Source: an uncultured Candidatus Saccharibacteria bacterium
GTDB lineage: Bacteria; Patescibacteriota; UBA1384; JACPKC01
NCBI GenBank assembly: GCA_964423885.1
Contig: CAYRGD010000001.1
Location: 89,653 to 153,652 of the forward strand
Length of the DNA: 64,000 nucleotides
Reading direction: 5' to 3'
The notes beneath the pieces were generated by a model, which was not told the DNA's origin, ran no database searches, and saw only the letters and a list, made by a program, of their open reading frames with translations. The translations under genes were made by a program, and so were the position numbers. Shown here piece after piece: positions 2,905-8,237 of the stretch (within the stretch, counting starts at the first letter, position 1; the number at the start of each line of letters is the position of its first letter).

Positions 2905-5355
2905 ATGATCGCCGCGCTGATCGGATTGGTAAGCCTCGGCCTCATTGCGGGTGCCGCTTGGTGGTGGGTGCGGCGGTACAAAACGCAGCACGCCTTGGCC
3001 TATGCCCAGAGTTTGGTCGTGCTCAAGGTGCTGCTGCCGCGCGAGGCGAGCGCCAAGGAAGAAGACCAGGGGCCGAAACGTGATTTCCGCGAGGCGATGA
3101 GCGTCGCCGAACAGTTCCTGACCGCGTTCTCGTCGCTGCACAACGGCGACCCGCGCACCTTGCTCACCGGCCAGGAAACGCTGTCGCTCGAGTTCGTGGC
3201 CAAGGACAACTTGATCAGCTTTTACCTGACCATGCCGACGCACCTGCGCGGGCTCGTCGAGCGGCAGCTGCACAGCTATTACCCCTACGCCCAGATCGAG
3301 CCCAGTCAGGATTTCCGGATCTTCGGCGCCCAGGCGTACCCGTACGGCACCTACGTGACCACCAAGCGGCAGTACGCCTTGCCGATCCGCACCTACCGGG
3401 CCATGGAAAGCGACCCGCTCAATGCGCTCACGAACTCGATGAGCAAGTTGCCCGATGGCGTCACAGCCGGGTTCCAGATCCTGCTCCAGCCTACCGACGG
3501 CGACTGGCGCGACAAGACCTCGGCCGCTGCCAAGAGTATTGCCGAGGGTAAGAGCCTACAGAAGCAGAGCCCGGTCTTAAAGGCATTGTCGGGGATCGTG
3601 GGTTCGCTCCGCGGTTCGTCCGACGACAAGAAGTCCGACGAACCGGTCCGGCTGACGCCGATCCAAGAAGAGCAGATGAAGAGCATCCAGGAAAAGGGGA
3701 GCAAGGTGGGGTTCGACACCGTGATCCGGGTGATCGCGGTGAGCGACCGGTCGGAGCAAGAGGCGAAGGTCGCCCTCGATACGGTCAGCACCGCGCTCGG
3801 CCAGTACACGTCCCCGGAACTCAACTTCCTCAAGAAGTCGGCGCCGGCGGACATGCGCCGCTTCGCGGCCGACTACATCATGCGCCGCTTCGACGGGCCG
3901 TCGACGATCCTCAACACCGAAGAGCTGGCGTCGCTCTACCACTTCCCGAACCAGTTCATTGAGACGCCGGCGCTCGAATGGCTGGCTGCTCGGGTGTTGC
4001 CGCCGCCCTCGAACTTGCCGCCCGAAGACGAAGGCACGGTCGTGCTCGGCAAGAGCGTCTACCGGGGCGAGGAGCGGCTCGTGCGGCTCCAGGCCGACGA
4101 CCGCCGCCGCCACCTGTACGCGATCGGGAAAACCGGCGTCGGAAAGACGACGCTGTTCACGTACCAGATCGAGCAGGATATCAAGGCCGGTCGGGGCGTC
4201 TGCTACATGGATCCCAACGGCGACGCGGTCGAGCACATCCTAGGGCTTATCCCGAAATCCCGGGCCGAGGACGTGGTCTACTTCGACCCGTCGGATACCG
4301 AACGGCCGATGGGCCTCAACGTCCTTGAGTGGAAGCGGCCCGAGGATAAGGACTTCCTGGTCGCGGAATGGCTCGAGATCTTTTACAAGCTGTTCGACCC
4401 GAACCGCACCGGCATGGTCGGCCCGCAGTTCGAGCACTGGGGCCGTAACGCCTCGCTGTCGGTCATGTCCCGGCCTGGCGGCGGGACGCTGATCGACATC
4501 CCGCGCCTGTTCACCGACGACGCGTTCCGCGAGGAAACGGTGAGCTACGTGACCGATCCGGTCGTGCTGGCGTTCTGGAACCAACAGATGGCCAAGACCG
4601 CCGATTTCCATAAGTCGGAAATGTACAACTACTTCAATTCCAAGTTCGGCCGGTTCATGACGAACGACATCGTCCGCAACATCATCGGCCAGAAGACCTC
4701 GGCCTTCGATTTCCGCGACATCATGGATTCGGGCAAGATCTTTCTGGTCAATCTCTCGAAAGGCAAGATCGGGGAAACGAACTCGTACCTGCTCGGCATG
4801 ATCCTGGTGAGCAAGCTCCAGGTCGCCGCATTCCAGCGGGCCGACATCCCTGAGGAGCAGCGCAAGGACTTCTACCTGTACGTCGACGAGTTCCAGAACT
4901 TTACCACCGACACGTTCAAGACGATCCTGTCCGAGGCCCGCAAGTACCGCTTGAACTTGAACATCACCAACCAATACATCGCCCAGCTGCCCGAAGCGAT
5001 CCGCGACGCGGTCATCGGCAACGCCGGCAACCTGGTGAGCTTTCGGATCGGGGCAGGGGACGCTGAGTTCATGGCCAAGGAGTTTCCCGATATCACGCAG
5101 CAAGACTTGGTCAACCTGACCTTTGCCAATACCTACGCCAAGCTGCTTATCGGCGGCACGCCGAGCCGGCCGTTTTCGATGCGCACGATCAAGAGCGAGA
5201 CGCAGCGGCACACCGAACTGGCCGAGGCGATCCGCCAGCTGTCTCGGTTGAAATACGGCAAGGACCGGGCGGCGGTCGAGGCCGACTTCAAGCAGCACAT
5301 GCCGTCGGCAACCGCGGTGCCGGAAACGCCGCCGGGCCGGGAAGGGCAGGGATGA
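2905..5355 (+). CDS. membrane-anchored P-loop ATPase, FtsK/HerA/TraD (type IV coupling-protein-like) superfamily, with ~350-aa N-terminal domain of unknown function
   Basis: N-terminal TM helix (IAALIGLVSLGLIAGAAWWWV). Walker A LYAIGKTGVGKTT. Walker B-like FYLYVDEFQNF. SEARKYRLNLNITNQYIAQL...GNAGNLVSFRIG arginine-finger/sensor region typical of FtsK/HerA/TraD ATPases. SD GAGGGGA precedes the ATG. Confidence 0.7.
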   Translation: MIAALIGLVSLGLIAGAAWWWVRRYKTQHALAYAQSLVVLKVLLPREASAKEEDQGPKRDFREAMSVAEQFLTAFSSLHNGDPRTLLTGQETLSLEFVAKDNLISFYLTMPTHLRGLVERQLHSYYPYAQIEPSQDFRIFGAQAYPYGTYVTTKRQYALPIRTYRAMESDPLNALTNSMSKLPDGVTAGFQILLQPTDGDWRDKTSAAAKSIAEGKSLQKQSPVLKALSGIVGSLRGSSDDKKSDEPVRLTPIQEEQMKSIQEKGSKVGFDTVIRVIAVSDRSEQEAKVALDTVSTALGQYTSPELNFLKKSAPADMRRFAADYIMRRFDGPSTILNTEELASLYHFPNQFIETPALEWLAARVLPPPSNLPPEDEGTVVLGKSVYRGEERLVRLQADDRRRHLYAIGKTGVGKTTLFTYQIEQDIKAGRGVCYMDPNGDAVEHILGLIPKSRAEDVVYFDPSDTERPMGLNVLEWKRPEDKDFLVAEWLEIFYKLFDPNRTGMVGPQFEHWGRNASLSVMSRPGGGTLIDIPRLFTDDAFREETVSYVTDPVVLAFWNQQMAKTADFHKSEMYNYFNSKFGRFMTNDIVRNIIGQKTSAFDFRDIMDSGKIFLVNLSKGKIGETNSYLLGMILVSKLQVAAFQRADIPEEQRKDFYLYVDEFQNFTTDTFKTILSEARKYRLNLNITNQYIAQLPEAIRDAVIGNAGNLVSFRIGAGDAEFMAKEFPDITQQDLVNLTFANTYAKLLIGGTPSRPFSMRTIKSETQRHTELAEAIRQLSRLKYGKDRAAVEADFKQHMPSATAVPETPPGREGQG

Positions 5356-8237: not shown

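Follow-up and report, generated by a model that had tools for sequence, protein, structure and literature searches.

A tandem pair of membrane-anchored, coupling-protein-like ATPases with a predicted VirB4-like N-terminal domain on a Patescibacteria chromosome

Signature ATPases of type IV secretion and the DUF8128 gene pair

VirB4 and VirD4 are the signature ATPases of type IV secretion systems (T4SSs). VirD4 and its counterparts act as type IV coupling proteins (T4CPs), and in the canonical members (VirD4, TrwB, TraD, DotL and Cagbeta) a two-helix membrane domain directly precedes the motor. The motor of VirD4, TrwB and TraD is a P-loop domain of the FtsK-HerA type with Walker A and Walker B motifs and an all-alpha domain within the nucleotide-binding domain. 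VirB4 (TrwK) joins an N-terminal domain to a RecA-like C-terminal domain, depends on its partner VirB3, and is found in T4SS clusters with VirB3, VirB6 and VirB8. Features of both ATPases occur in the gene pair described here, which lies at positions 2905 to 8237 of a 64,000-nucleotide stretch (hereafter the window) from an uncultured Candidatus Saccharibacteria bacterium (assembly GCA_964423885.1, contig CAYRGD010000001.1, positions 89,653 to 153,652). The two genes, A and B, encode paralogues in which one membrane helix is followed by a soluble domain of ~330 residues, catalogued in Pfam as DUF8128 (PF26449), and by a P-loop motor.

Much of bacterial diversity falls within the Patescibacteria, which live on other cells. 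In the one species tested, the T4SS is essential to the epibiotic lifestyle, and its gene cluster appears to contain no coupling protein. According to the survey by Quinonero-Coronel et al. 2025 (PMC12102498), 5,713 VirD4-type homologues, recognized by hidden Markov models (HMMs), occur in 2,918 of 3,035 Patescibacteria genomes. These orphan 'T4CP homologues' number about two per genome and lie without a relaxase and far from virB4 (148 are near it). A and B are almost certainly members of this near-universal group, a match made by description and not gene by gene. As catalogued DUF8128 proteins and published T4CP homologues, the pair constitutes no new kind of system. In the passages of the survey consulted, neither the N-terminal domain and its VirB4-like fold nor the A/B paralogy is mentioned, and relatives on phages and plasmids do not appear either. 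The searchable literature returned nothing under PF26449 or DUF8128. The VirB4-like fold, the A/B paralogue structure with its differences concentrated in the all-alpha domain, the Patescibacteria-specific membrane anchor, and the plasmid, phage and split haloarchaeal relatives were likewise not found there.

The predicted fold supplies DUF8128 with a domain annotation and bears on how VirB4 and VirD4 diverged. Experimental handles include the VirB4-like N-terminal domain, the two old paralogues that differ in their presumed substrate-binding domain, and the soluble relatives beside a relaxase-family gene on a Bacillus plasmid and in phage early regions.

Domain architecture of A and B

Gene A (2905..5355, + strand) encodes 816 residues and gene B (5352..8237, + strand) 961 residues. 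They overlap by ATGA at 5352..5355 (+), where the ATG of B begins at 5352 and the TGA of A occupies 5353-5355 (read ggATGAtag); the purine-rich stretch GGGAAGGGCAGGG stands immediately 5' of the overlap. Both open reading frames (ORFs) and their overlap, as described in the original prediction, can be read from the sequence, and the paralogy proposed there is borne out by an end-to-end BLASTP alignment with 37% identity (E=7e-167). Each product is 100% identical to a database protein: A to P0001, which carries PF26449 and PF02534, and B to P0121, which carries PF26449 and PF10412. The AlphaFold2 (AF2) models are confident, with a pLDDT of 92.5 and a pTM of 0.85 for A and a pLDDT of 89.1 for B.

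The single N-terminal helix expected for each protein was recovered as one hydrophobic 19-residue window per protein, within residues 1-22 (Kyte-Doolittle 2.15 in A and 2.41 in B), with basic residues next to it. In A, this segment (2905..2970, +) is the sole 19-mer with a Kyte-Doolittle value above 1.6. It is followed by RRYK, and the AF2 model shows a helix at residues 2-35. Because basic residues follow the helix, the positive-inside rule should place the bulk of A and B in the cytoplasm. The layout departs from both reference ATPases. Unlike canonical T4CPs, A and B have one helix and a presumably cytoplasmic, VirB4-like domain of ~330 residues between anchor and motor; unlike VirB4, they bring their own membrane helix.

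DUF8128 spans residues 37-362 of A (3013..3990, +) and 46-368 of B (5487..6455, +). The original prediction had described a domain of unrecognized, unassignable type. A domain of ~330 residues is indeed present, but PF26449 is already precomputed on the identical database proteins, an HMM built here matches at E=1e-132 (A) and 1.1e-118 (B), and structure comparison assigns a fold. The predicted domain matches the N-terminal domain of VirB4 and not the HAS barrel of HerA, and on these models DUF8128 has the fold of the VirB4 N-terminal domain. This kinship emerged from structure comparison only: searches of the local Pfam copy (where PF26449 is not reported), NCBIfam and PDB sequences gave no match for the domain. 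A match to the type VII secretion proteins EccE/EccC was far weaker, covered 143 residues and came without sequence similarity; EccE is moreover a separate protein of a different system. Among 1.84 billion representatives, the DUF8128 profile matched 4,974 clusters (50% identity) at E<=0.001, with the domain starting nearly always at about residue 40-70.

The P-loop motor follows at residues 386-764 of A (4060..5196, +; Walker A 4126-4149, Walker B 4870-4890) and 395-770 of B (6534..7661, +; Walker A 6603-6626, Walker B 7329-7352). Every motif quoted in the original prediction was located in both proteins: Walker A reads GKTGVGKT in A and GKTGTGKS in B, Walker B is present, and DFYLYVDEFQNF, SEARKY..LNL..TNQYI and GN.G..VSFR.G are common to the two. 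The predicted assignment to the FtsK/HerA/TraD-VirD4 superfamily also stands. Structure comparison scored the modelled motor at 29.5 against the VirB4 C-terminal domain (4ag5), 28.5 against the DptH C-domain, 27.8 against TrwB, 25.0 against HerA, 24.1 against DotL, 22.5 against Cagbeta and 15.7 against FtsK. By predicted structure, the motor falls in the VirB4/VirD4 clade.

Sequence models narrow this placement. The motor passes Pfam gathering scores for T4CP families only, namely T4SS-DNA_transf and TraG-D_C in A and TrwB_AAD_bind in B, and the same restriction to T4CP families was seen in nine diverse relatives, in which TrwB_AAD_bind passes as well. In B, this family reaches 30.3 bits (cut-off 20.5) over residues 408-724 and profile positions 12-314 of 387, and B aligns with TrwB (1e9r) by sequence at E=0.003. 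The VirB4 families CagE_TrbE_VirB, AAA_10 and TraC_F_IV gave no Pfam match at E<=0.1 in A or B, and the NCBIfam model VirB4_plasma reached 18 bits against a cut-off of 590, over the P-loop only. Because the N-terminal domain has a VirB4-like predicted fold and only T4CP Pfam families pass, the architecture is VirB4-like overall and the motor sequence coupling-protein-like.

Other motors of the superfamily fit less well. DUF87 scores 14-18 bits in A and B, under its cut-off of 23.2; neither the above-threshold DUF87 motor nor the HAS barrel of HerA is found in the pair. The combination that marks FtsK/SpoIIIE (an above-threshold FtsK_SpoIIIE motor, a multi-helix membrane domain and a gamma domain) is also missing. 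An anti-phage defence system with a HerA/DptH-like motor was also considered. Its matches span the shared P-loop core only, and the N-terminal domain resembles VirB4. At the locus, no nuclease, Sir2 or Dnd partner adjoins the pair, and the near-universal, syntenic core-genome positions of the family are unlike those of defence islands. A defence role is therefore very improbable and was rejected as the main explanation on the extent of the matches and the genomic context.

Within the motor of A, the AF2 model places an all-alpha insertion of eight predicted helices at residues ~480-609 (4342..4731, +), between core strands where the all-alpha domain of T4CPs sits. Walker A, Walker B and every catalytic or invariant residue are intact in both paralogue clades, each represented by more than 100 homologues. 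Thirty differences are fixed between A and B, and 17 of these fall within residues 505-586, inside the insertion. The second protein also carries the disordered Pro/Gln-rich tail noted originally, seen here as a Pro/Gln/Gly-rich low-complexity region of ~170 residues from about residue 790 to 961 (7719..8234, +) with the terminus LSWFD..L.SGQEISFPPK. The tail is poorly conserved across B orthologues, and close relatives have just the short terminal motif in common.

Two old paralogue lineages across Patescibacteria

A single conserved peptide pattern, applied to one genome of each species, yielded at least 548 confirmed relatives; among those listed are Berkel-, Sacchari-, Gracili-, Peri-/Peregrini-, Falkow-, Doudna-, Moranii- and Parcubacteria. 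For comparison of loci, 80 of these were kept and two Berkelbacteria loci (L001 and L002) added, giving 82. Both the gene calling in these loci and the tree derived from the proteins are crude. The neighbour-joining tree, drawn without support values, resolves two clades, A and B. A tandem A/B pair occurs in only nine of the 82 loci, all Berkelbacteria-like, and the remainder show a single gene within ±8 kb. Direct abutment of A and B is confined to two close relatives of the window (L003 and L005), and in the other tandem loci one to four genes intervene. In 28 of the 82 loci an A-type gene precedes dnaX by one to three genes, and in three loci B-type genes stand next to yebC and ruvC, unlinked from A.

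The clade split and the B-type genes found alone indicate that A and B are two old paralogue lineages and that the duplication is older than the tandem arrangement. The pair is the local, adjacent form of a Patescibacteria-wide family of two lineages and no peculiarity of this locus. The phylogenetic distribution that the original prediction proposed to check is thus phylum-wide for the family and narrow for the tandem pair.

Several small genes recur around the family. A conserved protein of 175-300 residues (cluster c2; for example L001 12635-13159 and L021 10485-11099) lies directly 3' of A-type genes in 24 of 82 loci from several classes, often with dnaX next, and could be an accessory subunit. 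Obligatory partners encoded at the locus were considered in c2 (24 loci), 'small0' (~165 residues, 19 loci) and c3 (~146 residues, 16 loci). None has a Pfam match, and all three are absent from the window, so they were rejected in this role.

Long family members were scanned for additional domains, and a single informative fusion was found. The B-type protein P0423 (942 residues, on an 864-kb contig of candidate division WWE3) carries a canonical C-terminal S1 nucleic-acid-binding domain (Pfam E=3.3e-17) in place of the usual disordered tail, which hints at a nucleic-acid substrate.

Thirteen loci (L020, L033, L040, L051, L057, L062, L065-L067, L069, L073, L074 and L079) hold a Patescibacteria-type gene under the record titles 'uncultured Gammaproteobacteria', 'Bdellovibrionales', 'Pseudomonadales' or 'Micavibrio sp.'. 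Since several have Patescibacteria-type neighbours, the taxonomic labels of these metagenome-assembled genomes are probably wrong.

Relatives on plasmids and phages

Outside Patescibacteria, the family is met on mobile elements. A tblastn search with the N-terminal domain against 72,556 plasmids returned 35 records, from haloarchaea, Bacillus and Priestia. The B. subtilis plasmid NRS6116_2 encodes a full-length homologue of A with 913 residues (BLASTP 2e-34; HMM E 1.7e-31 and 5.4e-44) that carries PF26449. Its gene directly precedes one of the 'replication-relaxation family', after which come TcpD, TcpE and a VirB4-like AAA_10 ATPase. No second T4CP is annotated on this plasmid in the PLSDB gene table, which is incomplete. 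A system of the pLS20 type was considered for NRS6116_2 and ruled out, given that the pLS20 T4CP is canonical (two membrane helices, 786 residues). Upstream of the Tcp-like transfer genes, the plasmid also holds a Tad/Flp-like pilus set (L088 23628-27300, L083 1-4700) with CpaB, two ATPases, an A24 peptidase and DUF4320. MOB-suite types NRS6116_2 as non-mobilizable, which may be an under-call.

In the conjugation clusters of the haloarchaeal plasmids examined (Haloterrigena and Haladaptatus), the module is split into two neighbouring genes. A standalone DUF8128-like ORF of 350-400 residues (E=3.6e-36 and 6.5e-32) directly precedes a T4CP of ~930-1,034 residues (E=3.6e-54 and 4.9e-52) and comes after a protein of ~1,100 residues, annotated as 'conjugal transfer protein' in Haloterrigena and as hypothetical in Haladaptatus.

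A functionally VirB4-like role was also considered, in which A and B would help to assemble or energize a secretion or pilus machine, as VirB4 does, instead of receiving substrates. The predicted fold of the N-terminal domain would suit this idea, but no VirB4 family was matched and T4CP families pass threshold. In addition, NRS6116_2 has a separate VirB4-like AAA_10 protein beside its DUF8128 protein. Patescibacteria, according to PMC12102498, carry their own separate VirB4 clade with TrsD partners. We consider such a role quite improbable.

Phage homologues form a further group. PHROG 5156, to which no function is assigned, aligns with the whole of A (E=2.7e-77), and tblastn recovered 26 phage records with homologues, among them Bacillus phage G (gp156), CP-51-like phages and Geobacillus TP-84. 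In two siphophages, TP-84 (L086 6767-9031) and vB_BceS-M2 (L087 6938-9100), the gene belongs to the early region and precedes genes for recombination and replication. The Firmicutes plasmid and phage proteins (e.g., phage G gp156) share N-terminal domain and motor with A and B but are mobile-element-borne, have no membrane helix and are annotated as DUF87/HerA; some phage copies are mis-annotated as 'lipid A export ATP-binding/permease protein MsbA'. Across the plasmid, phage and haloarchaeal relatives, no convincing membrane helix was detected, the sole window above the cut-off being an internal and borderline one in TP-84 (Kyte-Doolittle 1.65, about residue 215). Because the outside relatives show no convincing helix, the N-terminal anchor is, by sequence, specific to the Patescibacteria members.

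A proposed coupling-protein-like translocase and its alternatives

Judged by domain architecture, predicted folds, sequence relationships, distribution and gene order, A and B represent two old paralogues in Patescibacteria, on a branch of their own within the VirB4/VirD4 clade of type IV secretion ATPases. We favour, with a probability of roughly 55%, a reading in which they are a domesticated, membrane-tethered, coupling-protein-like receptor/translocase that is driven by ATP, would form hexamers and would act on DNA or nucleoprotein. The DUF8128-motor module would have originated as a mobile-element ATPase; its context is best defined in monoderm and archaeal conjugation systems, where it takes the place of the coupling protein. 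In Patescibacteria, it would have been turned into a duplicated, membrane-anchored core gene. This conjugation context is in line with published work that traces the T4SS of Patescibacteria to the monoderm MPF-FATA class.

In operation, the all-alpha domain and the tail would bind the substrate, most likely DNA or nucleoprotein, and ATP would be used to pass it to, or drive it through, a membrane channel, possibly that of a T4SS encoded elsewhere in the genome. The VirB4-like N-terminal domain may serve as a membrane-proximal docking collar, by analogy with VirB4. Because the catalytic residues are kept and the differences lie mainly in the all-alpha domain and the tail, A and B probably differ in substrates or partners, or form a mixed ring. 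An A/B hetero-oligomer may exist; it would fit the translational coupling and the shared conservation, which are no proof of it.

Several observations weigh against the coupling-protein-like reading, beginning with the assignment of the motor itself. All statements on folds derive from predicted models, and by predicted structure VirB4-like and VirD4-like motors are not separated. The Pfam T4CP domain models pass only marginally, and the curated TraD/VirD4 models of NCBIfam remain far under their cut-offs (SXT_TraD 46 bits against 366; conju_CD1115 35 against 250). A profile search of PDB with a 121-sequence alignment gave weak P-loop matches to DotL and TrwB and none to VirB4. A second set of points concerns the link to secretion. 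Among the larger ORFs scanned in the window, with the small ORFs only partly covered, no T4SS, relaxase or pilus gene was seen. Linkage of that kind was met only in distant plasmid homologues, and in this respect the chromosomal, duplicated A and B differ from ordinary T4CPs. PMC12102498 reports that Patescibacteria T4CP homologues almost never lie near virB4 and are commoner than VirB4 (2,918 against 2,417 of 3,035 genomes), a prevalence that argues against strict dependence on a T4SS. The same source reports a homologue in Southlakia epibionticum that is non-essential for epibiotic growth, whereas the T4SS genes are essential. The authors of the transposon-sequencing study found no recognizable coupling protein in the T4SS cluster (PMC10633639). 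Finally, the phage homologues cannot be working with a T4SS.

Much of this second set favours a housekeeping DNA pump that is independent of any T4SS. A membrane-anchored DNA translocase would have been exapted in Patescibacteria, perhaps for DNA uptake or nucleotide scavenging in natural transformation, or for chromosome movement at division. The prevalence and unlinked position of the homologues relative to virB4, the Southlakia gene reported as non-essential and phage copies that adjoin recombination and replication genes all point in this direction. So do the core-chromosome setting, with A-type genes near dnaX and unlinked B-type genes beside yebC and ruvC, the S1 fusion of the WWE3 protein, and the gain of a membrane anchor in Patescibacteria only. 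The synteny with dnaX and ruvC, however, may reflect lineage inheritance and not functional linkage, and the nearest contexts outside Patescibacteria are conjugation clusters. Such a pump is the chief rival to the favoured reading and is possible, if rather unlikely.

A bolder variant treats the DUF8128 ATPases as a third, unnamed branch of the VirB4/VirD4 clade that would retain an ancestral two-domain architecture, from which canonical T4CPs would have arisen by loss of the N-terminal domain. A and B would then build a mixed or stacked anchored ring that moves DNA without a T4SS, possibly for DNA uptake and nucleotide scavenging from the host. Patescibacteria are auxotrophic epibionts that depend on host nucleotides. 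We regard this variant as speculative and improbable.

Chromosomal setting of the pair

The window reads L10, L7/L12, tgt, A, B, secF and secD. The upstream neighbour tgt (1334..2512, +) clusters with Pfam-TGT-annotated genes of L001, and secF/secD (8534..10731, -), which flank B downstream, are named by synteny with Pfam-annotated relatives. The pair thus sits between tgt and secDF as originally placed; VirB3, VirB6 and VirB8, the neighbours expected in a T4SS cluster, do not flank it. The original observation that VirB-like, relaxase and pilus genes are missing nearby held for the larger ORFs scanned in the window. L001 and L002, from Berkelbacteria that are 53-58% identical, show a matching order: L10, L7/L12, TGT, small ORFs, A, a 175-residue gene, B, SecF, SecD and an NTP-transferase gene. 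Database homologues with 50-91% identity carry the names Candidatus Berkelbacteria or Patescibacteria group, and the organism of the window is itself a member of the Berkelbacteria. GC content and GC at third codon positions (GC3) are uniform along the region. Because the gene order is kept in distant Berkelbacteria and base composition is uniform, the A/B locus is core chromosome and no integrated or mobile element.

These data decide on a remnant of an integrated conjugative element or prophage with an ordinary coupling protein. The homologues on plasmids and phages speak for such an origin. Conserved housekeeping neighbours, even base composition, the intact catalytic residues in the many homologues of each paralogue, and a region in which no integrase, relaxase or repeats were seen speak against it. 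Such a remnant has hardly any chance of being correct and was rejected on synteny. An ordinary conjugative TraD on an integrated element, the case that the original prediction had named as its refutation, is likewise not what the syntenic core chromosome and the architecture, unlike that of TraD, indicate.

Between tgt and A lies an ORF of 120 residues rich in Pro, Glu and Ala (orf120; 2509..2871, +), which begins at an ATG that overlaps the end of tgt (ATGA). Whether it codes for protein is doubtful, given a GC3 of 0.56 against 0.83-0.88 in neighbouring genes. Similar acidic, Pro-rich and disordered ORFs, ending in a short 'LNLxAL'-like motif, occur upstream of A in L001, L003 and L004. A strong terminator-like hairpin (1291-1312, +) precedes tgt directly after a tRNA gene, and the next such hairpin in non-coding sequence on the + strand is a weak consensus match 3' of B (8368..8388, +). 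As no strong one was found in between, tgt, orf120, A and B possibly form one transcription unit. The scan is a weak one based on consensus matches only, with 10 sites found against 7.2 expected.

Other observations in the window

The tRNA gene at 1208-1286 (+), between L7/L12 and the tRNA-modifying gene tgt, directly 5' of which it lies, scores 47.4 bits in Rfam and encodes CCA, but its anticodon arm is abnormal. ARAGORN assigns it no identity and gives a four-base anticodon, 'cacc', and the Rfam alignment has 12 bases against the model's 9.

Further along, positions 20207-41347 (-) hold eight head-to-tail paralogues of ~860-910 residues, each with a signal-peptide-like N-terminus, DUF7948 (E~1e-50) and several SBBP beta-propeller repeats. 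They make up a large tandem family whose products are probably secreted or located at the surface. In the 1003-residue ORF at 30767..33778, DUF7948 begins only at residue 216, so the start called for this ORF probably lies too far upstream. Two further regions contain ordinary genes: at 16150-19035 (-), an AddA-like protein of 961 residues in which a UvrD-type helicase is fused to a PD-(D/E)XK nuclease, and at 45696-48865 (-), a ribonucleotide reductase with a TSCPD domain beside an NrdR-like repressor ORF.

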